A stretch of DNA of 64,000 nucleotides. It comes from Verrucomicrobiota bacterium (GTDB lineage: Bacteria; Verrucomicrobiota; Verrucomicrobiia; Limisphaerales; SXTU01). Positions 9,074 through 54,524 of the stretch are shown one piece after another. The notes under the pieces are model-generated. The model searched no databases and was not told where the DNA came from. It worked only from the letters and a program-made list of their open reading frames with translations. Made by a program: the position numbers and the translations under genes. Position 1 is the first letter of the stretch; each line of letters begins with the position of its first letter. The stretch lies in assembly GCA_016235545.1 (NCBI GenBank), contig JACRKB010000189.1:1863-65862 (forward strand). Direction: 5' to 3'.

Positions 9074-9087
9074 GCGGCAATTTGTTA

Positions 9088-9309: not shown

Positions 9310-9330
9310 CATGAGTTGTCAGGGAATCTT

Positions 9331-10188: not shown

Positions 10189-10308
10189 AATCTTGTCCCT
10201 CACGTGGCCAATCGCCTACGCTGGGCCGTGCGCCCCACTAGCTGAAGGTTTTGCCATGCTCAGCAATGTCGCTCCTGAAGCATCTGCGCGCTTGAACTTG
10301 TTCTCAAA

Positions 10309-11649: not shown

Positions 11650-11657
11650 CGCCGGCC

Positions 11658-13540: not shown

Positions 13541-13605
13541 CCGCCATGCACTGGCCTCCTGCGACAACCTCCCGTGTTCCACTCAACTGACAGAATGATT
13601 TCGTT

Positions 13606-15093: not shown

Positions 15094-15115
15094 TCACGCT
15101 CGGACCGGAACCGCC

Positions 15116-17461: not shown

Positions 17462-17480
17462 TTGCCAAAAACAAAACACC

Positions 17481-18230
17481 ATGACCAGTCCATCAGAACA
17501 GGATTTGAACCGCATCGTCGCTGACTACCAACGCGACGGCGTTGTTGTGCTCCGGCATTTTTTCAGCGCAGAGGAAGTCGCCGAGGTGCGCGCCGAGGTC
17601 GAGCGCTACATCCGCGATGACCTTGCCACCAAGCCGGCCGACGCCGCCACGCGCGAGGCCGATGGCGTCACCGTCCGCAACCTCTGGCGGCTCGAACAGC
17701 ACAATGAAAAGCTGCGCGCCCTCGCCGCGTCGCCGGCTATCCGCGACCTCGTTGCTCCACTGGTGCACGGCGAACCGGTGCTCGCGGGCATCGAGACGTT
17801 CAACAAGCCGGCGCGCATCGGCTCCGGCGTGCCGTATCATCAGGACAACGCCTACTTCTGCCAGACGCCACCCGACATGCTGACAGTCTGGATCGCGCTC
17901 GACGCCGTGACGGCGGCGAACGGCCCCGTGTTCTTCGTGAAAGGCTCGCACAAGCTCGGGGCGCTACCCACCAAGCCCTCTGGGGTGCGCGGGAATTCCA
18001 TCGGCATGGCTGAGCCGTCCGCAGTGCCGCTGGCGGAACAGTTCTGCGGTCTGCTCGCGCCGGGTGATGCGACGATTCATCACTGCAACACGATCCACCA
18101 CTCCGCGCCGAACACGACGGATTTCCCGCGGCTCGGATTTCTGCTGGTCTTCCGTGGCCGGCACACGCAGACGGATCCCACCTTGAAAGCCACTTACACA
18201 ATCGCCGCCACCGCGACGCCGCCCGCATGA
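17481..18230 (+). CDS. Phytanoyl-CoA dioxygenase (PhyH) family Fe(II)/2-oxoglutarate oxygenase
   Basis: Y.RDGVVVLRHFFS at the N-terminus, an HxD triad element (VPYHQDNAYF) and a distal His (TIHHSAPN). Confidence 0.75.
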   Translation: MTSPSEQDLNRIVADYQRDGVVVLRHFFSAEEVAEVRAEVERYIRDDLATKPADAATREADGVTVRNLWRLEQHNEKLRALAASPAIRDLVAPLVHGEPVLAGIETFNKPARIGSGVPYHQDNAYFCQTPPDMLTVWIALDAVTAANGPVFFVKGSHKLGALPTKPSGVRGNSIGMAEPSAVPLAEQFCGLLAPGDATIHHCNTIHHSAPNTTDFPRLGFLLVFRGRHTQTDPTLKATYTIAATATPPA

Positions 18231-20916: not shown

Positions 20917-20965
20917 ACCAACTCGCCATTCATTTTGTCAGAGTGAGGCACCAATAATCACCAAC

Positions 20966-22567: not shown

Positions 22568-22622
22568 GACACTGACAGGATGAGTTCCGAAACACGTCCA
22601 AAATGCCGCCCACATCACCATC

Positions 22623-24122
22623 ATGAATCCCCCCAACGAGAACGACGAGCTGGCACTCTCCAGCCGGTTTCGGAAGACAGCAGGCGCAAGTTTCCTTCAC
22701 GCGCTCCTCGCCGCGATTCTGTTCCTGCCTGCGCTCGCACTTCACGCCGAAGACTGGCCGCAGTTTCGCGGAGGCAATGCCAGCGGTGTCTCGTCGAGCA
22801 CGGGGCTGCCCGCAGAGTTCTCCTCGCAGAAAAACGTCGCGTGGCGGGTGAAGCTCGGTGATGGCATCGGCTCGCCGGCGGTGATGAGGGGCCGCGTCTT
22901 CAGCACGGCGATGGTGGGTGAACGTGCGGTCGCAGTGTTCGCTCTGGATGCCGCGAGCGGACAGCAGCTCTGGCGCACGGAGTTCGCGACGGGCGTCTTG
23001 CCGCGCATCACGCCGCCGAACAGCCACGCTTCATCCACGCCCGCTGCCGATGGCGACCGGGTCTATGTCCACTTCAGCACCATCGGCCTGCTCGCCTTCG
23101 ATGCGGCCACCGGTGCCGAGGTTTGGCGCTACGCGATGACGAAGCCCGCGTATCTCATGGACTGGGGCGCGGCTTCGTCGCCAATCGTCCACGGGGGCAT
23201 GGTCATCTTTTGTCAGGACGATGACCTCGCGCCGTTCCTCGTCGCGGTGGATGCGAAGACGGGGAAGGAGAAATGGAAGACGCTGCGCAAGGACATGCTC
23301 GCGGGCTATGCGTTGCCCGTGATGTGCAAGGCCAATGGCCGCACAGACCTCGTCATCGCCGGCAGCGGCAAGCTGAAGGGCTACGACCCCGGGACGGGCC
23401 GCGAGCTGTGGACGTGCAACACGCTGCTGCGGACCATCATGACTTCGCCCGTGGTCAATGACGGCGTCATTTACATCGCCGTGCAGAGCTACGGTGACTC
23501 CACGCGCACGCTCAAGCACGCGCTGCTGGAGTGGCTCGACACGAATCAGGACGGCATCCTCTCGCGCGACGAGGTGCCGAAGGAATTCCACGAGCGCTTC
23601 GATGCCTCCGACAAAAACAAGGACGGCAAGATTGGTCCCGAGGAAATCGACACTGCCTTCCAAAGCTCTGAGAACATGGCCGCCGGCGGCAACATCATCC
23701 AGGCAGTCAAGGGCGGCGGCACGGGCGATGTGACGAAGACCCATGTGCTCTGGAACTTCGATCACAAGACGCCCTCGAACCTCTCCTCGCCACTCTTCTA
23801 CAACCACCGGCTCTACCTCGTGAAGAGCGGCGGCATGTCGAGCTGCTACGATGCGCGCGATGGCAAGGTGCTCTGGGAGCGCACGCGGCTGGGCAATTTT
23901 GGCGACTACTTCGCCTCGCCCATCGCCGCCGATGGCAAGGTCTTCATCACAGGCAAGAACGGGTTCGTCATGGTGCTCAAGGACGGCCCAGAGATGAGGG
24001 TCCTCGCCAAGAATGACATTGGAGAGGAGATCATCGCCACGCCTGCGATTGCCGACGGGCGCATCTTCATTCGCACCCGCGAGAACCTGATCTGCGTGGC
24101 CAGCAAGCCAGCCAAACCCTGA
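22623..24122 (+). CDS. PQQ-like (BamB-type) beta-propeller repeat protein with embedded EF-hand pair
   Basis: DWPQFRGGNASGV, repeated W-containing blades, and two EF-hand loops (DTNQDGILSRDE and DKNKDGKIGPEE). Confidence 0.75.
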   Translation: MNPPNENDELALSSRFRKTAGASFLHALLAAILFLPALALHAEDWPQFRGGNASGVSSSTGLPAEFSSQKNVAWRVKLGDGIGSPAVMRGRVFSTAMVGERAVAVFALDAASGQQLWRTEFATGVLPRITPPNSHASSTPAADGDRVYVHFSTIGLLAFDAATGAEVWRYAMTKPAYLMDWGAASSPIVHGGMVIFCQDDDLAPFLVAVDAKTGKEKWKTLRKDMLAGYALPVMCKANGRTDLVIAGSGKLKGYDPGTGRELWTCNTLLRTIMTSPVVNDGVIYIAVQSYGDSTRTLKHALLEWLDTNQDGILSRDEVPKEFHERFDASDKNKDGKIGPEEIDTAFQSSENMAAGGNIIQAVKGGGTGDVTKTHVLWNFDHKTPSNLSSPLFYNHRLYLVKSGGMSSCYDARDGKVLWERTRLGNFGDYFASPIAADGKVFITGKNGFVMVLKDGPEMRVLAKNDIGEEIIATPAIADGRIFIRTRENLICVASKPAKP

Positions 24123-24128
24123 CCCGCC

Positions 24129-25574
24129 ATGTGGAAAATCTTTTCCCTCTGCCTCGCGCTCCTCAGCCCGGCCTTCGCTGCGCCAAAGATCACTATTGTC
24201 GTTGGTGAGAAGGCACCTGCCGTGGAAAAAGTCGCGGCGACGCAACTCGCCCACGACCTGACCGCGCTCTTCGAGGCCGACGTTCGAATTCAAACCGCAC
24301 TGCCCGGCGGTGCAGGCAGCACGATCCTGCTCGGCAGCCCCGCCACCAATCCTGCAATCCCCGCCGATGGCTGGCCCCGGCTGTCGCCGCAAGGCCACGT
24401 GCTCAAGACCACGCCGCGCGGTCTCATCGTCGGCGGAGGCAGTCCCGCAGCCACGCTGTGGGCTGTGAGCGAACTGTCGTATCGCTTCGGCATCCGCCAC
24501 CTGCTGCACGGTGACGTGCTGCCCATCGCGAAGCCGCCTTTCAAAGTCGATGGCTTCGACGTGCTGCTCGACACAAAGACGAGGTCGCGAGCGTGGGATG
24601 GATTCAACGGCCAGCCTTTCGGCTTGGACTCGTGGAGCGCCGACGATTGCGACGCCCTGCTGGCCCAGCTCGCGAAGCTGAAGTTCACGCACATCGTCCT
24701 GCCGGAAAAGATCGCACCGTTCAAACCGCTGCCGGTGGACGGTGACTCCGCCGGGCGCACCGCATTCAAAGGGGCGAAGGCTTTCGCCAATCCCGACGCT
24801 GCTGCCGTGGTGGCTCACCTCAAAGTGAAAGCTGCGGAGCTTGGTCTCGGCGTCATTGCTTCCGGTCCAGCCGCTGATTCGCTCGTGCATCTCGGCGCTC
24901 CGTCGAGCTCCGTGCTGCCGCAGTTCTCGCTCCAGAAACTTGCTGCCGATCTCGCGGGGCACGAGCGGATTGTTTGCCGGGCCACGATGGCCGGCGATCT
25001 GGATGCCTCGGCGCATTTTGTCAGCCGCGCGGCCTTCGATTCCAAGCTCACGCCGGAGCGTGCTCTGGCCGATCTGGTCACGCCGATTTGTGGAGAGGGT
25101 GTCGCCGAGCGCCTGTGGATGGGCTTTGGTCATGTCGAGAAAGCGGCCCGGCTCATTGCAGCCAACGACCCTCGTGTCGGCGTGCCGGACACCAGGCTGT
25201 TTCTCCGGCATCTCGAATCCAAGGAGCCGTTGCCCGCGTGGATCACCGAAGCGAAGACCCATTACACCGCCGCGATGAACGAGATGTATCGCGGCAACAC
25301 GCGCGCCCGTGGCGGGGCGCGGCCCTTCATCCTCTACCATGCCAAGCGGCTTGAGTTCGCACTGCACTACTTTCTTGCGCTGGAGTCGCTCTACAAGGCC
25401 CACGGCGCCCCGGTGCGGGCCGACTCGCTGGAAGCCGCCGTGGAGTCCACCTACAACGCGCTCAACGCCTATGCCGACGTGGCGCGCGACCCCAGCGATC
25501 GCGGCGTCATCGCCGTGCTGAACGAGCACGGATATCGTGCGCTGCGCAAGGTCGCCGACCGGGATGGAAAGTGA
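24129..25574 (+). CDS. Hypothetical secreted protein, possible glycoside-hydrolase accessory-type N-terminal domain
   Basis: Signal peptide. The N-terminal region (ITIVVG...ATQLAHDL...GHVLKTTPRGLIVGGGSPAATLWAVSEL) resembles the alpha/beta N-domains of GH20, GH67 and GH115 enzymes. I recognised no catalytic motif. Confidence 0.35.
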   Translation: MWKIFSLCLALLSPAFAAPKITIVVGEKAPAVEKVAATQLAHDLTALFEADVRIQTALPGGAGSTILLGSPATNPAIPADGWPRLSPQGHVLKTTPRGLIVGGGSPAATLWAVSELSYRFGIRHLLHGDVLPIAKPPFKVDGFDVLLDTKTRSRAWDGFNGQPFGLDSWSADDCDALLAQLAKLKFTHIVLPEKIAPFKPLPVDGDSAGRTAFKGAKAFANPDAAAVVAHLKVKAAELGLGVIASGPAADSLVHLGAPSSSVLPQFSLQKLAADLAGHERIVCRATMAGDLDASAHFVSRAAFDSKLTPERALADLVTPICGEGVAERLWMGFGHVEKAARLIAANDPRVGVPDTRLFLRHLESKEPLPAWITEAKTHYTAAMNEMYRGNTRARGGARPFILYHAKRLEFALHYFLALESLYKAHGAPVRADSLEAAVESTYNALNAYADVARDPSDRGVIAVLNEHGYRALRKVADRDGK

Positions 25575-25580
25575 CGCGCC

Positions 25581-26501
25581 ATGTCTGAACCCATCGTCTA
25601 TTTGAACCACGGTTTCGTCCCTGCCTCGCAGGCGAAGCTGAACATCTACGACCTCGGCCTCGTGCTCGGCGCGACGCTCACGGAGATGACACGCACGTTT
25701 CGGCATCAGCCGTTCCGCGCTGAGGAGCATGTTGCTCGTCTCTATCGCTCGCTGAAGTATTCCGGCATCACAGTTCCTCTAACGCAGGAGGAGATGCTGG
25801 CGCGGACGCGTGAGCTTGCCGAAGCCAACTGCAAGCTGCTGCGGCCGGACGAGGACATTGGGATCGTCCACTTCGTCACGCCGGGCGAACACGCGATGTA
25901 TGCCGGCAGCGCGGGCGCGGCTGCGCCTTTGACGCCCACGATCTGCATCCACTCGTTTCCGCTGCGCTTCATCATGTGGCGGCACTTGTTCGTCGAAGGC
26001 GCGCACGTCGTCACGCCGTCCATCCGTCACATCCCGCCGCAGTGCATCGAGCCAAAGATGAAGAACCGCAGCCGCCTGCACTGGTTCCTCGCCGACAAGC
26101 AGTCGCAGGCCGTGGACCCGCGCGCGATCACGCTGCTGCTCGATCTCGAAGGCAACGTCACCGAGTGCGCCGGCTCGAACTTTGTCATCATCAAGGATCA
26201 CACGATCATCTCGCCGACGACGCGAAACATTCTGTGGGGCGTCAGCCTGCAAACCGTGAAGGAACTCGCGCCAAACCTCGGCATGGAGTTTGTGGAGAAA
26301 GAATTCCAGCCCTACGACGTGGTCAACGCCGACGAAGCCTGGCTCACCACCACGCCTTATTGCCTGGCTCCATGCACAAAGATCAACAACATCCCCATCG
26401 GCACCGGCAAACCGGGGCCGATGTTCCAGCAGATGCTCGCGGCATGGAGCCGGCGCGTCGGCATGGACATCGAGGCGCAGTTGCTAAAGGCGCAGGGATG
26501 A
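25581..26501 (+). CDS. Class IV PLP aminotransferase family protein (D-amino-acid/branched-chain aminotransferase or ADC lyase-like)
   Basis: YLNHGFVPASQAKLNIYDLGLVLGATLTEMTRTF....F...EHVARLYRS matches the fold-type IV N-terminal pattern. The length (~306 aa) is typical. Confidence 0.7.
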   Translation: MSEPIVYLNHGFVPASQAKLNIYDLGLVLGATLTEMTRTFRHQPFRAEEHVARLYRSLKYSGITVPLTQEEMLARTRELAEANCKLLRPDEDIGIVHFVTPGEHAMYAGSAGAAAPLTPTICIHSFPLRFIMWRHLFVEGAHVVTPSIRHIPPQCIEPKMKNRSRLHWFLADKQSQAVDPRAITLLLDLEGNVTECAGSNFVIIKDHTIISPTTRNILWGVSLQTVKELAPNLGMEFVEKEFQPYDVVNADEAWLTTTPYCLAPCTKINNIPIGTGKPGPMFQQMLAAWSRRVGMDIEAQLLKAQG

Positions 26502-26588: not shown

Positions 26589-27368
26589 TTATTTCGCCGT
26601 GTAGCCGCCGTCCACGGGGAGGTTCACGCCGGTGATGTAGCGGGAGGCTTCGCTCAACAGGAACACCACTGCGCCGCCGAGGTCGCTGTCGTCCGCCATG
26701 CGGTTGAGCATGGTGTGCTCGCAGTAGCGCTTCAAGAAAGGCTCGGGTTGGTGGTTGAAGAAGCCACCGGGAGCAAGGCAGTTCACGCGCACACCGCGCG
26801 GGCCGTAGAGCGCGGCGTAGAAACGGGTGAGGTTCAACATTCCGCCCTTGTGGAAGAAGTAATCCGGCGGCATGTCGCCCATGTTGGTGCCTTCATACAA
26901 CTCGTAGCTCGGGCCGATCATGCCCTGGATGCTGCCGATGTTCACGATGCTCCCGCTTCCCGCCGCCGCCATCGCTTCGCCGAAGTGGCGGTGCATGAGC
27001 ATGACGCCAGTGGCGTTCACGCGCAGCGATTCCTCCCATTGCGCCACGCTGCCGCCCGCGCCTTTCATCGGGCGCAACACGGAGTTGTTCACCAAACCGT
27101 GCAGGACGTCGAAGCGCTCTTCGATGCGTGTCTTCAATGCGAGGATGGAGGCTTCATCGCCTTGATCGAAGCTCTCCGCGAAGACGCGGTGGCCGCGCGC
27201 GGTTTCCTCGGCGGCGACGCTTCGGAGCTTGTCCGCGTTGCGCGAGGCGATGACAAGGGTCGCGCCGGCCTCCGCAAGTGCCGCTGCGAGGCCGCGACCG
27301 AACAGGCCAGCCGCGCCGGTGAGCAGGACGACTTTGTCTTGCAGGCTGAAGCTGTTGATTGTGCTCAT
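26589..27368 (-). CDS. SDR family oxidoreductase
   Basis: Start MSTINSFSLQDKVVLLTGAAGLFGRG (TGxxGxxG), NNS motif, and C-terminal ASRYITGVNLPVDGGYTA. Confidence 0.85.
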   Translation of the reverse strand: MSTINSFSLQDKVVLLTGAAGLFGRGLAAALAEAGATLVIASRNADKLRSVAAEETARGHRVFAESFDQGDEASILALKTRIEERFDVLHGLVNNSVLRPMKGAGGSVAQWEESLRVNATGVMLMHRHFGEAMAAAGSGSIVNIGSIQGMIGPSYELYEGTNMGDMPPDYFFHKGGMLNLTRFYAALYGPRGVRVNCLAPGGFFNHQPEPFLKRYCEHTMLNRMADDSDLGGAVVFLLSEASRYITGVNLPVDGGYTAK

Positions 27369-28174
27369 GGCTTGGCTTGGTAGGTGGATGCCGGCGCAAC
27401 TGCGCTGACGGCCCGGTAGTCGGCGACCATCTTGTTGAAGGCTGCGCCAAGGCTGACCACATCCGCGCCGAGATTGAAGATGCGCCAACCTTCAGCTTCG
27501 AGTTCCGCACGCGGGGCGATCAGGCCGGGCGTCATGAGAAACTTCCCATGCTGCTGTGCGGCGGCGGCCACGCGCTTTCTCGCCGCCACCACCGCTGCAT
27601 CACCGAGCTGGCCGGCCTTGCCGATGAGATGGCTGAAGTCGCCGGGGCCGAAGAGCAGCACATCGAACCCCGGCACAGCGGCGATCTCCTCCACGTTGGC
27701 GAGGGCATCCGGCGACTCGATTTGAAAGATGAGCAGGCGTTCCGTGTTGCCGTGCTTGAGGTAATCGCCGATCGGTATCTGGCAGAAGCCGCCGTCAATG
27801 TTCCCACCGTCCATCGGGCGGCGGCCTAGCGGCATGAAGCGGGTCATCTCCACGATCTTGCGCGCCTCGTCGGCGGTGGTCACGTGCGGCACCATGATCG
27901 CCGTGGCGTCCATCTCGAACGGCTTCACGTAGTCGCTGTAACTGCCCTTGCTCACGCGGACGATGCTGTCGAGGTCGTGCAGCTTCGCGGCGCGCACCTG
28001 GTTTTCGAGATTGATCCAGTCATTGGGCACGTGCTCGTTGCACAGCCAGACGGCGGAGGCACCGGACAGTCCGGCCATCTCGGTGATGCGCGGGTCGTTG
28101 AGGTTGAGCTTGAGGGTGGCGGGGTTCTTGCCGGCGTTCAGTTCGCGAAGGAGTCTTGAGGGGCGGAGTTTCAT
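27365..28174 (-). CDS. HpcH/HpaI family class II (pyruvate/2-keto-3-deoxy-acid) aldolase
   Basis: IVRVSKGSYSDYVKPFEMDATAIMVPHVTTADEARKIVEMTRFMPLGRR, then FQIESPDALANVEEIAAVPGFDVLLFGPGDFS. 4-nt overlap with the downstream SDR. Confidence 0.8.
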   Translation of the reverse strand: MKLRPSRLLRELNAGKNPATLKLNLNDPRITEMAGLSGASAVWLCNEHVPNDWINLENQVRAAKLHDLDSIVRVSKGSYSDYVKPFEMDATAIMVPHVTTADEARKIVEMTRFMPLGRRPMDGGNIDGGFCQIPIGDYLKHGNTERLLIFQIESPDALANVEEIAAVPGFDVLLFGPGDFSHLIGKAGQLGDAAVVAARKRVAAAAQQHGKFLMTPGLIAPRAELEAEGWRIFNLGADVVSLGAAFNKMVADYRAVSAVAPASTYQAKP

Positions 28175-28179
28175 GTAAG

Positions 28180-29145
28180 TCAGGCTGCGTTGATTTCTTT
28201 GAACATGTCGGGAATGTGAATTCGAGAGCCGCCTTGCTCGCGGCTGCGACGGCCAGCGATGAGGATCGCCATCAGCTCGATGGTCTGGCTGAAATCAAAC
28301 GGCGCGCGGCCCGTTTGCAGCAGCCCGATGAACGACACCAACTGCGCGCGGAAGGCCGTGTAGTAATCGCGGCAGAGCAATGGCAGTTGAGATTTCGTGC
28401 CATAGAGATGGACGGCACCGAAACTGCCGCCCGCGTCATGGATCGCGCCCAGCGTCACTGGCACACCGCTCCGATGCGTGAGCTGCACGATGTCGCTCCC
28501 CTCGCGATGCGTGACCTGCGCCGTCTCAAAGCCGGGGCCGAGCAGCGGATAAACGGCCTCCAGCGCGTGGATGCCGTAGCGTTCCCAGCTCTTGCAGGTG
28601 AAGCTGGTAATCCATCGCAACTCACCAAGCGCCGCTCGCTGTTCCGCGCTGAGCTGCAACTCCGGGGCATACCTCATGCCGCTGCTGCTGAGAATGACTT
28701 TACCGGCGCGCTGCCATTGCACGAACTGCCGCAGGTCGGCCAAGTTTGTCGCCATCGGCTTGTCCACGAACACCGGCAGGCCGGCTTCGACGAAAGGCGC
28801 AACTCGTCGCACATGATCGTCGCCATCGTCCGTGGCGATCACAACCGCGTCCACATGGCCGATGACGTCTTCCGGTTTGCCCGCGATATGCCCGATCAAA
28901 CTCGCCGCGGCCACCTTCGGAGCATCCGCAGGATCGTCCGTCCAGACGTGCGTGACGCGCGCCCCGGGGATGCGAACGCTCTCGAACGCCTGCTTGCCGA
29001 GGTAGTCGAGGATCGTGGGATAGGGACAGCGCGCCATCGCCGCGCGGTCGTAGCCATTGATGATGGCGCTCCAAGAATACGGATGCCCGTTGCCCTCGAT
29101 CATGCCGAGCATCGCTAGACGGAGTTCTTTCCGGTCCGTGTTCAT
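28180..29145 (-). CDS. Gfo/Idh/MocA family oxidoreductase-like protein
   Basis: Start MNTDRKELRLAMLGMIEGNGHPYSW, chosen because of an ATGA overlap with the upstream gene. The fold is called from overall similarity: VDAVVIATDDGDDH, FVDKPMA. Confidence 0.6.
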   Translation of the reverse strand: MNTDRKELRLAMLGMIEGNGHPYSWSAIINGYDRAAMARCPYPTILDYLGKQAFESVRIPGARVTHVWTDDPADAPKVAAASLIGHIAGKPEDVIGHVDAVVIATDDGDDHVRRVAPFVEAGLPVFVDKPMATNLADLRQFVQWQRAGKVILSSSGMRYAPELQLSAEQRAALGELRWITSFTCKSWERYGIHALEAVYPLLGPGFETAQVTHREGSDIVQLTHRSGVPVTLGAIHDAGGSFGAVHLYGTKSQLPLLCRDYYTAFRAQLVSFIGLLQTGRAPFDFSQTIELMAILIAGRRSREQGGSRIHIPDMFKEINAA

Positions 29146-30164
29146 TCGATGGTGACGGGGAGGCCCGTGTCCGCTGAGCGAAGCGCCGCCTGGTTGAATT
29201 TCAACGTCTGCACCGCCTGCTCGAAAGTGCAAATCGGCGTCGCCCGGCCTTCCATGCCGTCGAGGAAAGCGTTCGCTTGCGCGATGAACAAGTCATCGCG
29301 CTCCAGCGGCGGCGTCTTCTGCCATGACCAGTCTTTGTCGCCTGTCCGCAGCACCCCCCAGCGTTGTTGGTGGCCCTCGATCTTGAGGCTGCCGCGCTCG
29401 CAGTGGATCAGAATGGTCGTCTCGTTGGGCGATTGGAACTGGTTCATCGCGTAGCTCACCAGCACCGAGCCGTGACGTGCCGTGACGTTGACCGTGTCTT
29501 CCACGGTGACGCCCTCCAGCGCCTGATGCGCGGCATCGCAAAAGACGCGCGTGCCGGGGCCGATGAGCCATTCCACGGCGTTCAACAGATGTGTGAGGGC
29601 ATCCTGCACCGCGCCGCCGCCCTGCTCCCGGCGTGCGTAGTAGATGTCCCGATACGCGGGCCGGAAGGTGGGGAAATGCTGCCCGGCAGTGATGCTGGCG
29701 TGCAGGGCCTTGCCCAGTCCGCCGCCGCTCAACAGCCCGCGTGCGCCCGCGAGCCAAGGCATGACATGATATACGTAGGCCACGGCCACAAAGCGTCCGG
29801 AGCTGGCGATGGCGGCGCGCACGGCGGGCACGAGCGCGTCATCAATTGAGAGGGGTTTCTCGATGAATACATGCATGCCGGCGGAAAGGAGTTTCACCGC
29901 CATCGGCAAGTGCAGCGGGGCTGGCGTGCAGATCACGGCGGCATCGAAGCGCGAACCGGCTAGCGCCGCATCCAGCGAGGCAAACACCGGCACGGCATAC
30001 TTCTCCCTCATGCTGCCCAGCAACGCGGCGTTGCTGTCGCACGCCGCGACAGCGCAGCGCGCGGTCCGCTGAAAGCAGCGCAGGTGCCGTTCGCCGATGC
30101 TGCCGCAGCCGATGATGAGGACGGAACTCAAGCGCGCAGAGCATCGGCATTCTGCGCCGCGCAT
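29142..30164 (-). CDS. Gfo/Idh/MocA family NAD(P)-dependent oxidoreductase
   Basis: VLIIGCGSIGERHLRCF Rossmann start, AAVICTPAPLH, FIEKPLS. The start at 30164 is the only in-frame ATG. Confidence 0.8.
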   Translation of the reverse strand: MRGAECRCSARLSSVLIIGCGSIGERHLRCFQRTARCAVAACDSNAALLGSMREKYAVPVFASLDAALAGSRFDAAVICTPAPLHLPMAVKLLSAGMHVFIEKPLSIDDALVPAVRAAIASSGRFVAVAYVYHVMPWLAGARGLLSGGGLGKALHASITAGQHFPTFRPAYRDIYYARREQGGGAVQDALTHLLNAVEWLIGPGTRVFCDAAHQALEGVTVEDTVNVTARHGSVLVSYAMNQFQSPNETTILIHCERGSLKIEGHQQRWGVLRTGDKDWSWQKTPPLERDDLFIAQANAFLDGMEGRATPICTFEQAVQTLKFNQAALRSADTGLPVTIE

Positions 30165-30178
30165 AAAAGCCGATTCCT

Positions 30179-30199
30179 CTGGTCACATATTGCGACCAA
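30179..30199. promoter_or_regulatory. Candidate GntR-type operator CTGGTC-N9-GACCAA in a divergent promoter
   Basis: Same half-sites and same 9-nt spacing as 7883-7903, with 11 of 12 half-site bases identical. It lies 15 nt upstream of the minus-strand operon start and 83 nt upstream of the plus-strand aldolase start. Confidence 0.4.
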
Positions 30200-30281
30200 G
30201 AGCTTGGGTTTGCTCGCGGCAACCAGATGGGGGAGGATGCCCTCCCAGAAAGATCGAAACCAAAGCGCGACGCCTCCAGTC

Positions 30282-31106
30282 ATGAGAAAATCGAAAATCC
30301 TCGCCAAGCTCCGCTCCGGCAAAGTCGCCCGCGTCGCCTGCACCGGCTCGCCCATCTGCATGTTCCCGGCGCTCGCCGCACACTTCCACTACGACGGCGT
30401 CTGGGTGGACGCCGAGCATCGCACCTGGGATCCGCACGAGGCGCAGGCCATGATCGCCAATCATCATGCGGCGGACATTGACTGCCTCTGGCGCGCGGTG
30501 ACGAAGGAGAAGACGGCGCTTTACCGACTCCTCGAGGAAGGCGCATCCGGCCTTATGATTCCCCATGTCGGGACGCCGGATGAAGCGCGTGCCCTCGTGC
30601 AGGCCGTGAAGTTTCCGCCGCTGGGCGACCGTGGCCTGTGCGGCGGCGGACGCGACGCGAACTTCTGGGTCGGTGCGCCGAAGGACTACACCACGCAGGC
30701 GAATCGCGAGACATTTCTCACGGTGCAAATCGAGACGCCGGAAGCGCTCGCCAACGCCGAGGCCATCGCCGCCGTGCCGGGCGTGGACGTGCTTTTCATC
30801 GGTCCCGGCGACATGTCGTTGCGGCTCGGCTGCACCGCCGCTGTCAGCGATTCGAAGATGCTGGAGGTGCAAAAGCAAATCGCCGCCGCCTGTCGCAAGC
30901 ACGGCAAGGCCTGGGGCCGTCCCGTGGGCACGGCTGACGACGCGCGCACCATCATTGAACTGGGCGCACAACTCGTGGTTCTGGGCAGCGAGTTTGGAGC
31001 CTTGCACAAGCATCTGTCCGAATGCTCCGACCAGTTCGATGGCTTGCTCGACGAAAAGGCCGGCGCACCCGCAACTCCTCTTCCGGCGACCGGCAGGACC
31101 TACTGA
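30282..31106 (+). CDS. HpcH/HpaI family class II aldolase (second copy)
   Basis: MRKSKILAKLRSGK, DGVWVDAEHRTWD, LMIPHVGTPDEARALVQAVKFPPLGDRG, VQIETPEALANAEAIAAVPGVDVLFIGPGD. Confidence 0.8.
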   Translation: MRKSKILAKLRSGKVARVACTGSPICMFPALAAHFHYDGVWVDAEHRTWDPHEAQAMIANHHAADIDCLWRAVTKEKTALYRLLEEGASGLMIPHVGTPDEARALVQAVKFPPLGDRGLCGGGRDANFWVGAPKDYTTQANRETFLTVQIETPEALANAEAIAAVPGVDVLFIGPGDMSLRLGCTAAVSDSKMLEVQKQIAAACRKHGKAWGRPVGTADDARTIIELGAQLVVLGSEFGALHKHLSECSDQFDGLLDEKAGAPATPLPATGRTY

Positions 31107-31111
31107 GCACC

Positions 31112-32350
31112 ATGAACCCCTGGCACATCCTCACCGCAGTCACGATTTCCGTTGCGCTTCATTCAAGCCTTCCCGCCGCCGAGGCTCCCGCCTTCGACAT
31201 TAAGCTCGACACCATCAGCACCGGCTTCGACAAGAAATCCTGCTGGGTGCATCCGCGCGCTGGCACCATTCCGGGGGCGGTGCCGAAGGTGGTGCTCACG
31301 ATGCAGAAGGCGATGCTCGTGGGCAGCGACATTTTTTATGCGCTCAACGAGATGCGAACCGATGACCTCGGCAAGACTTGGTCCGGCCCCGTTGAGCACA
31401 CCGCGACGCTGGGCCGCCGCGATGAACCGAATGGCGTCGTCGTGGCGGCGAGCGACTTCTGGCCCAAGTGGCACGCGAAGTCCGGCAAGCTCCTCGGCAT
31501 CGGCCACAATGTCCGTTATCAGAACAACAAGGTCATGCCCGCACCCGTCCGTTCGCGCGAGACGGTCTTCTCCATCTACGACCCGGACAAACGCGCTTGG
31601 ACCGCCTGGGAACCGCTGGCGATGCCGGACGAACCGCGCTTCTTCAACTCCGGTGCCGGCTGTGTGCAGCGGCTCGACCTGCCCGACGGCGATATTCTGC
31701 TGCCGGCATATTTTTCGGCGAAGGGCGGCAAATTCAGCCGCGTTGCCGTGCTGCGCTGCGGCTTCGACGGACAGAAGCTCAGCGTGAAAGCCGTCGGCAA
31801 CGAGCTCAGCGTGGACTCAGATCGCGGTGTGCATGAGCCGTCACTCACGAAGTTTCGGGGCCGATATTATCTGACCATCCGCCACGACCAGCGCGCCTAC
31901 ATCACCACCAGCGGCGATGGGCTGAACTACGGCGCGCTCAAGCCTTGGACCTGGGACGACGGCTCCGACCTCGGCAGCTACAACACGCAAGCGCACTGGG
32001 TCACGCACGACGAGGCGCTGTTCCTTTGCTACACGCGGCGCGGCGCGATGAACGACCACATCCCGCGCAATCGCGCGCCGCTGTTCATCGGCCAAGTGGA
32101 CCCGGAGAAGCTCCACGTCCTCCGCGCCACCGAGCGCGTGCTGATGCCGCAGCGCGGCGCGAAGCTCGGCAACTTCGGCATCACCGAGGTGAATGAAAAT
32201 GAAACCTGGGTGACCGACGCGGAATGGATGCAGACCAGCGGCCCGAACTACGCCGACTTCACACAGTGCACGAAATACGGTTCGGACAACGCGGTGTTCG
32301 CCGCGCGCATCCAATGGAAGAAGCCCAACACGACTTGGAACCAGCGCTGA
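31112..32350 (+). CDS. Secreted sialidase-superfamily-like beta-propeller (degenerate Asp-boxes), paralog of 50934-52190
   Basis: Signal peptide. One clear Asp-box-like element (TDDLGKTWSGP) and partial ones (SGDGLNYG). There are long conserved blocks shared with 50934-52190: EPSLT.F.GRY.LT.R, GSYNTQ.HW, YTRRGA.NDHI.R.RAPLF, RGA.LGNFG. Confidence 0.5.
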   Translation: MNPWHILTAVTISVALHSSLPAAEAPAFDIKLDTISTGFDKKSCWVHPRAGTIPGAVPKVVLTMQKAMLVGSDIFYALNEMRTDDLGKTWSGPVEHTATLGRRDEPNGVVVAASDFWPKWHAKSGKLLGIGHNVRYQNNKVMPAPVRSRETVFSIYDPDKRAWTAWEPLAMPDEPRFFNSGAGCVQRLDLPDGDILLPAYFSAKGGKFSRVAVLRCGFDGQKLSVKAVGNELSVDSDRGVHEPSLTKFRGRYYLTIRHDQRAYITTSGDGLNYGALKPWTWDDGSDLGSYNTQAHWVTHDEALFLCYTRRGAMNDHIPRNRAPLFIGQVDPEKLHVLRATERVLMPQRGAKLGNFGITEVNENETWVTDAEWMQTSGPNYADFTQCTKYGSDNAVFAARIQWKKPNTTWNQR

Positions 32351-32413
32351 AGCCACGAATCCAACTATCCGGGCACTTCGCCAGCTTGACCCGGTTTCAA
32401 TGACTCAACTCGC

Positions 32414-34072
32414 ATGACCAAGATTTCCACTCTCCTCTGCCGACTCCTTGGCGCGATCTTGTTGCCGCTGCTTGAGGGGTTGGGATTCGCGGCTGAAAAG
32501 CAACCTGACATCACCATGCTCGGGCAGCGTGTCGAGCATCGGGCCACACTGCTGGCGATTGATGATGCGTCGTTGCCGTTGCGAAAGAACCTGGGGCTTT
32601 ACTTGAGCAAGCCCAAGGTGCGCGCCGAGGCCGTGTTGAAACCCAGTTCGTTCGGCAGCGGCGCGCCGGATGATCTCGCGGCGCACTTCTATGGCACCGT
32701 GCTGCAGGACGGCGACAAGTTCCGCATGTGGTATTACGCCTGCCATTGGGGCAAGAATCCTGACTGGTCGCCGCGCCTGATGCAGCAGGTGGCGAAGGCT
32801 TCCTACGGCCCGCTTTACCAAGGGCCGCTGTGTTACGCCGAGAGTGACGACGGCATCACCTGGAAGAAGCCGGAACTCGGGCAGGTGCTCTTCAAAGGCA
32901 GCAGCAAGAACAACGCGCTCGCCCTGCCGCACACGGTGGTCAGCGGTGCAATCGTCATCAAGGACGCCGCCGACCCGAATCCGGCTCGACGCTACAAGAT
33001 GACCTACCAATTCTTCCCCGAGTTCAGCCAGCCCACCGTCGCGGAATACGGCCGTCAACCTTCGGTGGCGCTGGCCGTGTCGCCTGATGGCTTGAAGTGG
33101 CAGGTGATCGGCATTCCGTTTCGCAATCAGTTCGTCGAGCCGTCCAGCTTCGTCAAACACGCGGGTCACTACGTCATTCACTATCAGGCGGCGGGCAGCT
33201 TGGGCGGCTACTTTGCGGAAGGTGGCACGTCCAGCGGACGGACCGGAGTGGCGCGCATCACCATGGATTTTGCGCGCTGGCCCGACGCGCTCGCTGAGGC
33301 GTTCGCGCTGGCCGAGCCCGAGGATAAATCCAAACGCGGCTTGAGTGGCGACTACGATCAAGCGCATCTCGGTGTCGGCGCGGCCAGCTTTGGCAACGTC
33401 TGCGTCGGCCTCTACGGTCTCTGGCACAATGCGAATTTCAGCCAGGCATTCGATCAAATCTCCTGCGACTTCGGCCTGCTCGTCTCCAACGACGGCGTGA
33501 AGTTTCGTGAGCCGGTGAAAGGCCACCGCTTCCTGCGTCGGGAGGACTCACTGGTCACACCCGTGCCAGGTCGCGACTTCAACACCATCCTCTGCCAGGC
33601 CAACGGCATCCTCAACGTCGGCGACGAGACGCGGATATACCACGGTCGCTGGCGCAACGCGGCCAAACGTGCCGAGAAGGATGATCTCAAGCATTACTAT
33701 GCCGAGGTCGCCCTGGCCACGCTGCCGCGAGATCGCTGGGGCGCGCTAGGGCTTCATCCGGGTGCCAATGAAGGCACCGTGTGGACTGCGCCCATGACGA
33801 TCAACAAGCCCGGATGCGAGGTGACGCTCAATGCCGATGGTGTGCAAGGCATGAGCGTGGAGATCGCCGACGGGAGCTTCGCACTGTTGCCAGAATACTC
33901 CGGCGCCAACGCGGGAATCGTCTCCGCCAAGGACGGGCTCGATTGCCAGGTGAAATGGCCCAAGGCCAGCCTCGATGCACTGGTCGGCAAGACCGTGCGC
34001 CTGCGCTTTCAACTGAAGAAGGGCGACCATGTCGAGCCTCGACTCTTTGCCGCGCATGTGACCGTCGAGTAG
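32414..34072 (+). CDS. Secreted Asp-box beta-propeller glycosidase-like protein (paralog of 12056 and 19393)
   Basis: Signal peptide. FRMWYYACHW, ESDDGITWKKPELG, SPDGLKWQV, VSNDGVKFRE. The C-terminal ~100 aa look like a beta-sandwich tail, as in 19393. Confidence 0.55.
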   Translation: MTKISTLLCRLLGAILLPLLEGLGFAAEKQPDITMLGQRVEHRATLLAIDDASLPLRKNLGLYLSKPKVRAEAVLKPSSFGSGAPDDLAAHFYGTVLQDGDKFRMWYYACHWGKNPDWSPRLMQQVAKASYGPLYQGPLCYAESDDGITWKKPELGQVLFKGSSKNNALALPHTVVSGAIVIKDAADPNPARRYKMTYQFFPEFSQPTVAEYGRQPSVALAVSPDGLKWQVIGIPFRNQFVEPSSFVKHAGHYVIHYQAAGSLGGYFAEGGTSSGRTGVARITMDFARWPDALAEAFALAEPEDKSKRGLSGDYDQAHLGVGAASFGNVCVGLYGLWHNANFSQAFDQISCDFGLLVSNDGVKFREPVKGHRFLRREDSLVTPVPGRDFNTILCQANGILNVGDETRIYHGRWRNAAKRAEKDDLKHYYAEVALATLPRDRWGALGLHPGANEGTVWTAPMTINKPGCEVTLNADGVQGMSVEIADGSFALLPEYSGANAGIVSAKDGLDCQVKWPKASLDALVGKTVRLRFQLKKGDHVEPRLFAAHVTVE

Positions 34073-34096
34073 TTGTCACCCAGAAGTGATCCAGCC

Positions 34097-34972
34097 ATGG
34101 ACTTCCACAAATATCTCCGTCACATCACTTCTGCCACGCTGCTTGTTGTCCTCATGGCGTCGTGTTCCCAAGCGGCGGAAACAAAAGCGCCGATGCAAAT
34201 GCTCCGCACGCCTGGCAACGTCCGCTTCGGCATCATCGGCGGGCAGACGGGGGCGATGTCTGCGACGTTGCTCGTGGTGGCGATGAGCATCGAGGACATG
34301 CAGCGCGAACCGGTGTTCACTGAAGTGTCCCGGCTCCTGGTTGAGCAGGGATTCCTGAGCATTGTTATTGAGCCTCCGTGTCACGGCGAAGATCGCAAAC
34401 CTGATGAGCCGGATGGACTCGCGGGTTGGCGTCATCGTCTTGATCGCGATGAGAACGTGGTGCAATTGTTCAACACCAAAGCGCGGGCGGTGCTTGACCA
34501 TGTCATCGCCCAAGGCCTTGCCGATCCCGGTCGCGTCGCCATCTGCGGGACTTCGCGCGGCGGTTTCCTCGCCTTCCACTTCGCCGCCAGCGAACCCCGG
34601 ATCAAAGCCGTCGCTGGTTTTTCGCCCGTTTCTGATCTGCAGGGCTTGACCGAGTTCAAAGGCGCGGCGACCGGCAGTCTTGCTGAAAAGCTGGCGCTGA
34701 GGCACATCGCTCCGCAACTCATCGGTAGGCCAGTGTGGTTGAGCATCGGCAACCACGACGGGCGAGTGGACACCGACAGTGCCATCGCCTTCACTCGCGC
34801 GCTCGTTCATGCGAGCGCCCGGCAGAGCAAGGAGGCGAAACCACTGATTCCAGTCGAGTTGATCGTCGCTCCGACTGCGGGCCACTCCAAAATCGATCAC
34901 GCCCACGAACTCCTCGCCGCCTGGTTGGCGAAAGTAATGCCGCCCATTCCACCCGCACCTAAACACCAGTAG
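34097..34972 (+). CDS. Secreted alpha/beta hydrolase (dienelactone hydrolase/esterase-like)
   Basis: Signal peptide with ASCSQA. Nucleophile elbow VAICGTSRGGFLAF (G-x-S-x-G). C-terminal AGHSK supplies a candidate catalytic His. Confidence 0.65.
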   Translation: MDFHKYLRHITSATLLVVLMASCSQAAETKAPMQMLRTPGNVRFGIIGGQTGAMSATLLVVAMSIEDMQREPVFTEVSRLLVEQGFLSIVIEPPCHGEDRKPDEPDGLAGWRHRLDRDENVVQLFNTKARAVLDHVIAQGLADPGRVAICGTSRGGFLAFHFAASEPRIKAVAGFSPVSDLQGLTEFKGAATGSLAEKLALRHIAPQLIGRPVWLSIGNHDGRVDTDSAIAFTRALVHASARQSKEAKPLIPVELIVAPTAGHSKIDHAHELLAAWLAKVMPPIPPAPKHQ

Positions 34973-34975
34973 TCC

Positions 34976-35935
34976 GTGAAAAAGCGCTATCGCCCCTGCG
35001 TCCTCGCCACGTGCTGTGTGCCGTGGCGTGAGAACGACACCTTTGCCGAGGACATCTTCCGCCGCTCGGTGCGCCACCTCATCGCGCATGGCATAAACGA
35101 CCTCTACACCTTCGGCACAGCGGGCGAAGGCTATGGCGTCACTGAAAGACAATTCGACGAGGTCACCTGCGTGTTTCTCGATGAGACTCGCGGTGATGGC
35201 GTGCAGGGCATGGTGGGTCTCATCAGCCTTTCGCTGCCGACCGTCATCGACCGCATCGAGCGGGCAAGAGGAATGGGCGCGCGGCGATTTCAATTGAGCC
35301 TACCAAGCTGGGGCGCGCTGAGTGACGCAGAGATGAGGACGTTCTTTCGCGAGACCTGCGGACGTTTTCCCGACTGCGAATTCCTGCACTACAATCTCAT
35401 GCGCACCGGCCGCATCATCACAGGCACCGATTATGGCCGCCTCGCCGCGGAGCATCCCAATCTCGTCGCCACCAAGAACAGCACGGCGGACGAGCAGCGG
35501 CTGCGCAGCCTCATGCAGGACGCGCCGCAGCTCCAGCACTTCATCACCGAGGCGGGATTCGCCAAGGCTGCCGAGCTTGGTGAATGCGGGCTTCTCATCT
35601 CCTTTGCTTCCTCGAATCCGGCTCTGGGGCTGGAATACTTCCGCGCCGGGCACGAACGAAACTTCACCTTGCTCCGCGAGATCGAGCAGGAACTCAGCGT
35701 CCTGGCGTCCGACCTGGTGGCAACCGTTGCGGGCGGCGCGCACATGGACGGTGCGTTCGACAAGATGTTCTGCCGCCTGCACGATGCCGGATTTCCTCTG
35801 CGCCTTCTGCCGCCTTATGCGTCCATAAGTGACGAGACCTTTCAGCGCTACGCGGAAGTTTTGCGCACGAAGCATTCACGCTGGATGCCTGAGTGTGCAG
35901 TTGCAGCAAGCCAAACAATCGCTTGCGGAGGCTGA
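34976..35935 (+). CDS. DapA/NanA (DHDPS) family class I pyruvate aldolase
   Basis: GTG start. TFGTAGEGYGVT matches the GT(T/A)GE motif. NLVATKNSTAD provides the Schiff-base lysine context. Length ~319 aa. Confidence 0.65.
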   Translation: MKKRYRPCVLATCCVPWRENDTFAEDIFRRSVRHLIAHGINDLYTFGTAGEGYGVTERQFDEVTCVFLDETRGDGVQGMVGLISLSLPTVIDRIERARGMGARRFQLSLPSWGALSDAEMRTFFRETCGRFPDCEFLHYNLMRTGRIITGTDYGRLAAEHPNLVATKNSTADEQRLRSLMQDAPQLQHFITEAGFAKAAELGECGLLISFASSNPALGLEYFRAGHERNFTLLREIEQELSVLASDLVATVAGGAHMDGAFDKMFCRLHDAGFPLRLLPPYASISDETFQRYAEVLRTKHSRWMPECAVAASQTIACGG

Positions 35936-36020
35936 CCGGCCATTGAACCGCGTGACACATACACCGCCCTTTCCTGGCCGAGCAAGCCCGTGAGCAAACG
36001 ATGCAGCGGACAATCCCACC

Positions 36021-36803
36021 ATGAACACGAATCCGTTTGATTTGACCGGCCAGGACCACTGGGTCGTCGGGGGCGCGGGCTACCTTGGACAGCCAATCGT
36101 GAAGTTGCTCGCGAGCCTCGGCGCGCGGGTGTTGTGCATCGACATCGAAGATCGGGCGGTGAATTTTATCGAGAGCGCCGGACTGGCTTCTCAAGTCACC
36201 GCTGGCCGGATCGATGCGAATGACACCGAGGCCGCGCAGCAGTTTGTCGCGTCGCAACTCTCCACGCGCGGTGTGCCGCACGGTTTGGTGATGATGAACT
36301 ACGCCTCCACGGCGAAACGGCTCGAAGAGCTTTCGGCGGAGGACTTTGACCGCGTGAACCACGGCAATCTCACCTCAACCTTCATGTTCGCTCGCGCCGT
36401 CGCCACTGCGATGCGCGGCGAGAAGCGCGGCTCCGTGGTGCTGTTCTCCAGCATGTATGGCAGCGTCGCGCCCGACCCTGCGATCTACCGGGCGCCGCAG
36501 ACGCCGAACCCGATAGAATACGGCGTCAACAAGGCGGGCATCCAGCAGATGGCGCGCTACCTGGCGATGCACTTCGGTCCCGACGGCGTGCGCTGCAACG
36601 CGATCTCTCCCGGCCCGTTTCCAAACCCGGAATCGCAGCGCGTGAATACGCACATGATCGCGAGCCAGAATCTCAAAGTGCCGCTCGCCCGCATCGGCCA
36701 GGCGGAGGAGATCGCGGGCGCGGTCGCCTTCCTCGTCAGCGATGCCTCGACCTATGTCACTGGCATCAATCTCCCCGTGGATGGCGGCTGGACGGCTTGG
36801 TGA
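36021..36803 (+). CDS. SDR family oxidoreductase
   Basis: VVGGAGYLGQPIV glycine-rich loop, YGVNKAG (YxxxK), C-terminal ASTYVTGINLPVDGGWTAW. Confidence 0.85.
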   Translation: MNTNPFDLTGQDHWVVGGAGYLGQPIVKLLASLGARVLCIDIEDRAVNFIESAGLASQVTAGRIDANDTEAAQQFVASQLSTRGVPHGLVMMNYASTAKRLEELSAEDFDRVNHGNLTSTFMFARAVATAMRGEKRGSVVLFSSMYGSVAPDPAIYRAPQTPNPIEYGVNKAGIQQMARYLAMHFGPDGVRCNAISPGPFPNPESQRVNTHMIASQNLKVPLARIGQAEEIAGAVAFLVSDASTYVTGINLPVDGGWTAW

Positions 36804-54508: not shown

Positions 54509-54524
54509 GCCGCGATGGCGGGTG

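Follow-up and report, generated by a model that had tools for sequence, protein, structure and literature searches.

A CTGGT-N11-ACCAG palindrome as the predicted operator of an autoregulated GntR/LacI-type regulator and its catabolic genes in a Verrucomicrobiota bacterium

Introduction

Does a single local regulator act at two promoter regions that lie 22 kb apart and carry the same palindrome? The question is raised by a stretch of 64,000 nucleotides of Verrucomicrobiota DNA, analysed here at its full length and referred to as the window, in which one copy of the palindrome adjoins the start of a regulator gene and the other lies between two divergent sets of catabolic genes. A preliminary description of this DNA had proposed that one sugar-sensing regulator controls a surface pilin-like module together with a sugar-acid catabolic locus. 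Transcriptional regulation in the Verrucomicrobiota, especially in the uncultured Limisphaerales, is almost unmapped, and a literature search found no description of the regulator family or of the operator motif in this phylum.

Results

Two palindromes in divergent promoter regions

Site 1 (7883..7903) reads CTGGTCccgtaaagtGACCAG, is a perfect 6+6 palindrome and adjoins the ATG of the regulator gene (7882, minus strand), and site 2 (30179..30199) reads CTGGTCacatattgcGACCAA and lies between two divergent catabolic operons. Reading the sequence again returned both palindromes exactly where they had first been placed. The exact pattern CTGGTC-N9-GACCA has no match in the 64-kb window other than these two, against 0.02 occurrences expected from 100 shuffles. 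A looser 12-base pattern allowing up to two mismatches gave 8 matches against 3.06 expected, a count that 5 of 100 shuffles reached and that is not significant alone, and the case therefore rests on the exact pair together with independent evidence. For the shorter pattern CTGGT-N11-ACCAG, four other matches at 9 of 10 positions are present in the window.

A weight matrix derived from 28 autoregulatory sites of other loci, with the window and its closest relative (L001) left out, was run over all 64,000 positions of the window (GC 59–67%). Site 1 ranked first with 28.9 bits and site 2 second with 21.0 bits, followed by a third match with 10.0 bits; none of 200 window shuffles reached 21 bits, and the maximum over all 200 was 18.6 bits. 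The best score in the other non-coding gaps of the window was 8.4 bits, which bears out, within the window, the earlier impression gained by eye that no further copy exists. Nor was the motif similarly frequent in coding sequence of the window, the two sites being the top two matches of the 64 kb and both lying in divergent promoter regions. Two weaker matches, one at 20934 (10.0 bits) and one ahead of gcvT at 56681 (8.4 bits), were considered and set aside as shuffle level, the mean maximum of the shuffles being 9.4 bits.

The similarity of the two sites continues for 25 nt past the palindrome on the plus strand, with 18 of the 25 positions identical, and AGCTTnnGnTTGnnCnCGGCAACC is found without mismatches solely at 7905 and 30201 in the window. 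This flank similarity was absent from the preliminary description.

The regulator joins a GntR winged helix to a LacI-type core

The regulator gene (6794..7882, minus strand) encodes a protein of 362 aa with an N-terminal GntR winged helix-turn-helix (PF00392) and a C-terminal LacI-type, periplasmic-binding-protein-like sensor (PF13377). The PF00392 match, at 37.2 bits against a cut-off of 27 and covering residues 25–75, places the protein in the GntR superfamily, and PF13377 (Peripla_BP_3) matches with 62.5 bits. No FCD or FadR_C match was found with Pfam, the C-terminus being Peripla_BP_3, and the LacI-type helix-turn-helix PF00356 was likewise not found, so that GntR is the sole N-terminal helix-turn-helix detected. 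These assignments agree with the original reading of site 1 as adjoining the start of a GntR/periplasmic-binding-protein-like regulator. Sequence matches in the PDB divide in the same manner, with FadR matching residues 37–79 and LacI-family cores matching residues 126–330, and full-length orthologues align with the regulator.

According to the table of FadR base contacts in PMC4494728, the contacting residues are R35, T44, R45 and H65; these align with R42, S51, R52 and H72 of the regulator. The predicted G-contacting arginine of the recognition helix, R52, aligns with FadR R45 and is invariant in six orthologues. The operator signature quoted for the GntR family in PMC1950556, (N)y-GT-(N)x-AC-(N)y with x = 0–15, is matched by CTGGT-N11-ACCAG with x = 11, here and at 30 orthologous sites, as had been anticipated from the GT-N-AC core of the motif.

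The palindrome accompanies orthologous regulator genes

Loci with orthologues of the regulator were gathered without reference to the motif, 8 from genomes and 37 from metagenomes, the latter found with an alignment of six orthologues. Upstream sequence was available for 41 loci, and in each of these the region from −250 to +40 of the start codon was scored for its best match to CTGGT-N11-ACCAG. Among these 41 loci, whose orthologues are 37–91% identical to the regulator, 36 have the palindrome at the regulator start codon; the best match had 10 of 10 positions in 25 loci, 9 of 10 in 5 and 8 of 10 in 6, and in nearly all cases it ended 0–12 nt before the start codon. The site was kept across 50–91% protein identity and across locus GC contents of 48–68%. 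Second-best scores in the same upstream regions were 6–7, with one of 8, and because the best scores stand well apart from these the signal is taken to be real. The remaining five of the 41 loci had no good site. The comparison of orthologous promoters thus upheld site 1 at the position expected for it.

The consensus of the orthologous sites is wwCTGGTymsnwwwnskrACCAGww, in which TGGT and ACCA are nearly invariant, the information content of this core being inflated because the sites were picked by core match. L001, a metagenome-assembled genome of the Limisphaerales (Verrucomicrobiota) and the nearest relative within the genome collection, encodes a regulator 91% identical; it has unchanged palindrome arms and a few differing flank bases, and is too close to inform alone. 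At the other extreme stand three loci with 37% identity, the most distant ones; their palindrome is CTGGCC-N9-GGCCAC, placed about 50 nt upstream, and the regulators of this clade have the recognition helix SRNTCRN instead of SR(R/P/T)TLR(T/A).

Further sites of at least 20 bits were found near other regulator orthologues, at loci L004, L006, L024 and L037. At L004, a divergent HpcH aldolase gene and a Gfo oxidoreductase gene have a 10/10 site between them. At many regulator loci no second site was found within 10 kb.

Site 2 is kept ahead of an oxidoreductase operon

Pfam assignments agreed that site 2 lies between a minus-strand GFO_IDH_MocA gene and a plus-strand HpcH aldolase gene. On the minus strand, the four-gene Gfo operon (26589..30131) encodes a Gfo/Idh/MocA oxidoreductase of 329 aa starting at TTG 30131, a second Gfo/Idh/MocA protein, an HpcH aldolase and an SDR; on the plus strand, the string at 30282..36803 encodes an HpcH aldolase, two proteins without family, an esterase, a DHDPS-family lyase and an SDR. 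TTG 30131 is most likely the start of the first oxidoreductase. The database gene call has 329 aa, the best 120 homologues are nearly all of 326–334 aa and mostly of 329, and four orthologues have just 3–7 residues ahead of their ILIVG motif; on account of the homologue lengths and these short N-termini, the upstream ATG at 30164 was rejected as the start. With the start at TTG 30131, site 2 lies 47 nt upstream of the minus-strand gene, not 15 nt as previously described, the divergent region measures 150 bp rather than 117 bp, and the two palindromes do not share a position relative to their minus-strand start codons, the distances being 0 and 47 nt.

Conservation of site 2 was examined by searching for homologues of the oxidoreductase and retrieving four contigs (L046–L049). 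L046, with a Gfo protein 88% identical, has CTGGTCACTTCATGTAACCAG at 25.3 bits, 47 nt from the start codon; L047 (79% identical) has TTGGTCACATAATGAGACCAG at 24.3 bits and 48 nt; and L048 (74% identical) has TTGGTCCCATTTGGATACCAG at 16.3 bits and 47 nt. These scores exceeded those of 300, 300 and 298 of 300 shuffles, respectively, and in each of the three the palindrome was the top weight-matrix match of the whole locus. The fourth Gfo operon, in L049, has merely a degenerate GTGGT-N11-ACCAC about 50 nt upstream. The gene order Gfo-Gfo-HpcH-SDR is kept in L047 and L048. The expectation that site 2 would be conserved in orthologous loci was thus borne out in three of the four, where the palindrome stands 47–48 nt ahead of the oxidoreductase operon.

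Both palindromes share a putative promoter layout

Strict scans for consensus promoters and terminators gave nothing useful in either region of the window, and positions relative to transcription starts are therefore deduced solely from conserved spacing, by our own reading of a 30-locus alignment anchored on the palindrome. On the catabolic side, the palindrome is followed by a 10-nt linker, TTGnnn (−35-like), 16–18 nt, nAnnnT (−10-like) and 6–10 nt to the start codon, a layout which implies that the catabolic mRNAs would be leaderless or nearly so. From palindrome to divergent ATG the distance is 45–52 nt in 18 of 31 regulator loci. On the regulator side, TAnnCT ends 1 nt before the palindrome and TTGyCn lies 17–18 nt further up.

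Read in this manner, the putative regulator promoter (7905..7933, minus strand) has its −35 box TTGTCG at 7933–7928 and, after a 17-nt spacer, its −10 box TAAGCT at 7910–7905, in the conserved spacing. The putative divergent promoter at site 1 (7914..7942, plus strand) has TTGTCC at 7914–7919, 10 nt from the palindrome, a 17-nt spacer and AAAGGT at 7937–7942, ending 6 nt before the ATG of a mini-ORF at 7949. At site 2, the putative Gfo operon promoter (30140..30168, minus strand) has TTTTAT at 30168–30163, again 10 nt from the palindrome, and, beyond a 17-nt spacer, GATGCT at 30145–30140, 8 nt before TTG 30131; the putative promoter of the HpcH-aldolase string (30210..30238, plus strand) has TTGCTC at 30210–30215, at the same 10-nt distance, a 17-nt spacer and GAGGAT at 30233–30238, 43 nt before ATG 30282. 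The plus-strand flank of site 2 aligns position for position with that of site 1, and the Gfo promoter layout is repeated in L046, L047 and L048, for example as TTGGCG-16-TAAATC/TAAAGA with 9–10 nt to the ATG.

The similarity of the two sites beyond the palindrome is, on this reading, a shared promoter layout, and the inverted repeat CTTGyC..GrCAAG seen at many loci is the two interleaved −35 boxes of divergent promoters. The shared flank AGCTT..TTG..CGGCAACC had been considered as a second operator, a sigma-54 or ECF promoter, or a repeat; these candidates were rejected in favour of the common layout of the 30-locus alignment, and even the 91%-identical relative does not keep CGGCAACC, which is as frequent as expected by chance. 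A regulator −10 box inside the palindrome, suggested by TATAAT in low-GC orthologues, was dropped for the conserved TAnnCT upstream, both readings being putative. No RNA family was found by Rfam anywhere in the window.

The gene strings at the two sites form one conserved set

Downstream of site 1, a putative operon on the plus strand (7998..26501; Pfam assignments) runs from a pilin-like gene to a class IV aminotransferase gene. In order, it encodes a pilin-like protein, a small lipoprotein-like ORF, a gluconolactonase, an aminotransferase, a protein of 500 aa without family assignment (unk500) and an SSF transporter; an amidohydrolase-aminotransferase, a PhyH protein, a beta-helix protein and a second protein without family assignment, of 541 aa (unk541); and lastly a multicopper oxidase, a PQQ propeller protein, a further protein without family and the class IV aminotransferase. 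Two gaps in this string approach 400 nt. The gene at 7998 has a prepilin N-methylation motif and the small ORF next to it a lipoprotein-like signal, in keeping with the earlier placement of site 1 upstream of a divergent pilin-like and lipoprotein pair. Between site 1 and the pilin-like gene, the sequence contains a 13-codon mini-ORF (7949..7990, plus strand), which begins 45 nt from the palindrome and 6 nt after the putative −10 box, at the usual start position of the divergent gene. Its counterpart in L001 is of equal length, and 5 of 7 nucleotide differences alter the peptide.

A pilin-like gene is adjacent and divergent to the regulator solely in the window and L001; elsewhere a catabolic gene takes this place. 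In this lineage specifically, the pilin-like gene heads a long putative catabolic operon, and it is no separate conserved target. Conservation at site 1 concerns the promoter of the regulator itself and the catabolic operon with its beta-helix, PhyH and two family-less proteins. In other genomes, homologues of the beta-helix protein (46–65%), unk541 (56–63%), unk500 and PhyH are encoded in the operon divergent from the regulator, and homologues of the BNR, Gfo_b (43–62%), HpcH_b and SDR_b (62–81%) proteins flank the regulator; SDR (62–81%) and HpcH (25–34%) homologues lie near it in L009, L010, L023 and L034. Since homologues of both loci stand beside the regulator elsewhere, the two loci of the window represent one conserved gene set, which in other genomes frequently stands immediately divergent to the regulator.

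The family-less proteins of this regulon received no names from NCBIfam. Farther along, the window encodes a GH20 enzyme, BNR sialidase-like proteins, a NanM-like Kelch protein and esterases. The BNR, NanM-like Kelch, SSF transporter, GH20, esterase and DHDPS-family lyase genes loosely suggest an acidic or amino sugar, such as a nonulosonic acid, as the substrate.

Discussion

Both palindromes are, with good probability, operators of the form CTGGT-N11-ACCAG, to which the regulator encoded at 6794..7882 would bind as a dimer; it would switch its own autoregulated gene and a set of sugar-catabolic genes that is conserved across the Verrucomicrobiota. Domain homology and residue conservation suggest that each DNA-binding domain would read a TGG/CCA motif as FadR does, with the two motifs 13 bp apart, in a dimer geometry presumably set by the LacI-type core. 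At site 1 the operator would lie between the −10 box and the start codon of the regulator gene and would span the transcription start together with the short 5′ UTR in full; a bound regulator should thus prevent transcription of its own gene. Of the functional predictions from these sequences, negative autoregulation has the strongest support, since the operator stands between the predicted regulator −10 box and the ATG in nearly every locus. For the divergent promoter, which would drive the pilin-led catabolic string, the same operator would lie 10 bp ahead of the −35 box, and site 2 would lie 10 bp from the −35 boxes of two divergent promoters, those of the Gfo-Gfo-HpcH-SDR operon and the HpcH-aldolase string. 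The precedents of AraR and the LacI family suggest that a sugar or sugar-acid from the substrate of the locus may bind the sensor, alter DNA binding and so switch the whole set.

For this single-regulator model, the core of the proposal made at the outset is supported: operators shared between the two loci, as judged from conservation at 36 of 41 and three of four orthologous loci and from the top matrix ranks in the window, would link the loci under one regulator, and the pilin-like gene falls away as a conserved target. The term "surface pilin module" overstates that target, since pilin adjacency is limited to the window and L001.

The direction of control at the catabolic promoters is less evident than the identity of the sites. 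The operator centre would lie about 57 bp upstream of each predicted catabolic start site, at the Gfo sites on both sides. This position is compatible both with repression, by hindering upstream contacts of RNA polymerase, and with activation; it is no classic repressor position. For CcpA and GalR, of the LacI/GalR family, the sites of action are centred near −56.5 and −60.5, not far from the approximately −57 deduced here, and CcpA reportedly activates ackA from its site near −56.5. Most regulators with a LacI core, however, are repressors released by sugar. Repression is tentatively preferred at the catabolic promoters because AraR, itself a GntR/LacI chimera, is a repressor released by its sugar (PMC1950556).

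The main alternative concerns the mode of action and not the identity of the sites: the same regulator at the same sites may be a ligand-dependent activator of the catabolic promoters and a repressor of its own, with LysR- or AraC-like logic. The tightly fixed distance from palindrome to start, in the 18 of 31 regulator loci noted above and at 47–48 nt in four Gfo operons, speaks for this, as does the geometry of the Gfo sites, which carry no constraint from a regulator promoter and still keep it on both sides (L046, L047). The catabolic promoters of the window are also poor against consensus, as is often so for activator-dependent promoters. Fixed spacing could, however, stem from compact intergenic regions, a leader of about 45 nt on the Gfo mRNA would make the operator overlap the core promoter, and the AraR precedent of release by sugar (PMC1950556) weighs on the side of repression; activation is judged somewhat unlikely. 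An extended form, in which the chimera binds half-sites spaced by roughly one and a half turns of the helix and is a bidirectional ligand-dependent activator of leaderless operons from a fixed position about 57 bp upstream, with the same site switching off its own promoter and a pilin-like (prepilin/DUF1559-type) gene recruited in this lineage, appears doubtful.

Whether the adjacent regulator is the protein that binds is a separate matter. The half-sites CTGGT/ACCAG are those of the Escherichia coli FadR operator (PMC3592433), and as sequence analysis cannot assign a site to a protein, a factor encoded elsewhere, for example a FadR-type GntR protein, might bind while the regulator is a bystander. 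In 36 of 41 loci, however, the site accompanies the start codon of the regulator, and it changes with the recognition helix, half-site and helix being altered together in the most divergent clade; both observations make another factor improbable, and the 13-bp spacing differs from the 5 bp of FadR. Still less probable is an origin of the 46-bp shared module as a duplicated promoter fragment or repeat, with the palindrome forming an RNA or DNA hairpin. The 18 of 25 identical flank positions could come from an intragenomic duplication, and the palindrome could form a hairpin with a 6-bp stem and a 9-nt loop; against this, there are two copies only in the 64 kb, the Gfo sites in L046–L048 keep the palindrome and not the AAGCT flank, and the 4-bp core TGGT/ACCA is near invariant in sequence across distant genomes, not merely complementary. 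A transcribed hairpin is further disfavoured by the position of the palindrome upstream of the predicted catabolic −35 boxes, from which it would not be transcribed, and by the lack of a T-run after the palindrome and of an Rfam match. A chance coincidence picked by eye, to which the unenriched loose pattern and the four other 9/10 matches might have pointed, is effectively refuted, given an exact pattern expected 0.02 times, site 2 unreached in 200 shuffles and both sites conserved at orthologous positions.

In architecture, the predicted regulator most resembles AraR of Bacillus subtilis, which likewise combines a GntR-type N-terminal DNA-binding domain with a GalR/LacI-type effector domain (PMC1950556; Pfam for the present protein), and which has palindromic operators fitting GT-Nx-AC, an operator at its own gene and several sugar-utilisation promoters under its control. 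The two differ in their operators: the AraR box is the 16-bp ATTTGTACGTACAAAT, whose motifs AraR reads 6 or 8 bp apart (PMC3592433), whereas TGG and CCA here are 13 bp apart, and AraR uses paired in-phase operators with looping, in contrast to the single sites 22 kb apart in the window. AraR structures are present in the PDB as 4EGY, 4EGZ and 4H0E (PMC4494728), and no AraR chain was among the phmmer matches to the PDB at E ≤ 0.01, either with the full protein or with its N-terminal 92 residues, so the relation to AraR is one of architecture and not of close homology. Set beside the AraR subfamily, then, the regulator has the GalR/LacI-like C-terminal core, shows no sequence relationship to AraR in the phmmer search and has no box with 6–8-bp spacing.

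In DNA recognition, the likeness is to FadR, the best PDB match of the helix-turn-helix (residues 37–79), with base-contacting Arg, Arg and His conserved in the regulator and with identical half-sites CTGGT/ACCAG in CATCTGGTACGACCAGATC, where FadR reads TGG in each half with the motifs 5 bp apart (PMC3592433). The regulator departs from FadR in the wider 13-bp spacing and in its LacI-type core, the C-terminal domain of FadR being all-helical and acyl-CoA-binding. For the FadR-subfamily consensus NyGTM-N0-1-KACNy, correspondingly, the half-sites match and the GTM and KAC cores are separated by N11. FadR is described as both repressing and activating, by site position (PMC4259882). With the LacI/GalR family, exemplified by CcpA at ackA and GalR at gal OE, the protein shares the fold family of its sensor and dimerisation core, differing in its GntR winged helix, where that family has a LacI-type N-terminal helix-turn-helix and hinge helix.

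The predicted circuit is that of an ordinary local, autoregulated, sugar-responsive regulator with a palindromic operator, and as a standard regulator-operator arrangement it holds modest surprise; what sets it apart is the unusual half-site spacing and the lineage-specific link to a pilin-like gene. Half-sites of FadR type at a much wider spacing, paired with a LacI-core dimer, bear on operator-spacing geometry and on biosensor design. For a group of bacteria with so little regulation mapped, CTGGT-N11-ACCAG provides a testable motif, and the conserved regulon that it would define takes in widespread family-less proteins, namely the beta-helix protein, unk500 and unk541. Pilin-like genes of the Verrucomicrobiota are many and unexplained. 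The arrangement at site 1 would be the first regulatory link of a pilin-like gene to a specific catabolic pathway, and if the novel activator reading were true, this class of genes would be tied to the uptake or processing of a specific glycan.

Gene neighbourhood and promoter features of the regulator locus

Six pilin-like genes lie within 9 kb around the regulator gene (6794-7882, minus strand). Five are in tandem at 98-5009, each encoding a prepilin N-methylation motif, accompanied by DUF1559 in three of the five, and are followed downstream by a 3-keto-disaccharide hydrolase gene (5037-5771). The sixth starts at 7998, across the palindrome from the regulator. Between this palindrome (7883-7903) and the sixth pilin-like gene is a 13-codon ORF (7949-7990), which begins 6 nt past the inferred -10 box and whose start occupies exactly the usual start position of the divergent gene, the first gene opposite the regulator in other loci. 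A mini-ORF of equal length, with the peptide MVSRTNRLGQAAN, is found in L001, the relative whose regulator is 91% identical. Since five of the seven nucleotide differences between the two alter the peptide, the mini-ORF looks, from this sequence comparison, like a remnant or a leader rather than a conserved peptide.

On the plus side of the second palindrome (30179-30199), there is a perfect hairpin, GGGAGG-atgc-CCTCCC (30231-30246), which overlaps with the -10 box and the start region inferred for the HpcH-aldolase promoter and has no T-run after it. A further match to the simple pattern CTGGT-N11-ACCAG, CTGGTTTCCGAAGCCGACCCG at 56681-56701, agrees at nine of ten positions and lies about 97 nt upstream of gcvT. 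With the weight matrix it scores 8.4 bits, a level that shuffled sequence also reaches, and it was taken as a chance match.

Variants of the regulatory module in other loci

A second complete regulatory module was found in L037 (6309-6329 of that locus), comprising a palindrome of 28.9 bits, both -35 boxes and the divergent start codon. The palindrome is followed by an ATG that opens an ORF of a mere four codons, ATGACCGCTCCGTGA. The intact regulator of L037 is located 3.7 kb away and has a weaker site of its own (19 bits). The second module looks like the stump of a regulator gene that was lost or displaced. An ATG directly after the palindrome, as at the regulator gene, also occurs in two loci with orthologues of the Gfo oxidoreductase of the second site (L046, 1633-1682, and L048, 5622-5670). 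In L046 it starts a 16-codon ORF that ends in a TGA overlapping the ATG of Gfo (ATGA), an arrangement not conserved in L047, a third such locus, or in the window.

The most divergent regulator clade (L042, L043 and L045; 37% identity) carries CTGGCCtgaaagtcaGGCCAC upstream of the regulator gene, some 50 nt from its start, with TGGCC half-sites and an unchanged inner spacing of 9 nt. The recognition helix also differs in this clade, and the two sequence changes together possibly represent a specificity switch.

Proteins accompanying the regulator

By GC3 and Pfam, no confident gene was found at 53949-55203 (1.3 kb) or 60261-62282 (2.0 kb), and long ORFs overlap on both strands from 60.3 to 64 kb. 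Elsewhere in the window, four genes encode proteins that travel with the regulator: a 500-aa protein (unk500; 12038-13540), a beta-helix protein (18227-19393), a 541-aa protein (19291-20916) and a 419-aa protein (50931-52190). Their co-occurrence across Verrucomicrobiota, seen in L003, L004, L007, L012, L019, L027, L029 and L037, is at 46-65% identity, with some unk500 matches down to 27%. Searches of Pfam and NCBIfam gave no assignment for the four, except a sub-threshold Beta_helix match for the beta-helix protein. All four are good candidates for as yet unassigned enzymes of the pathway.
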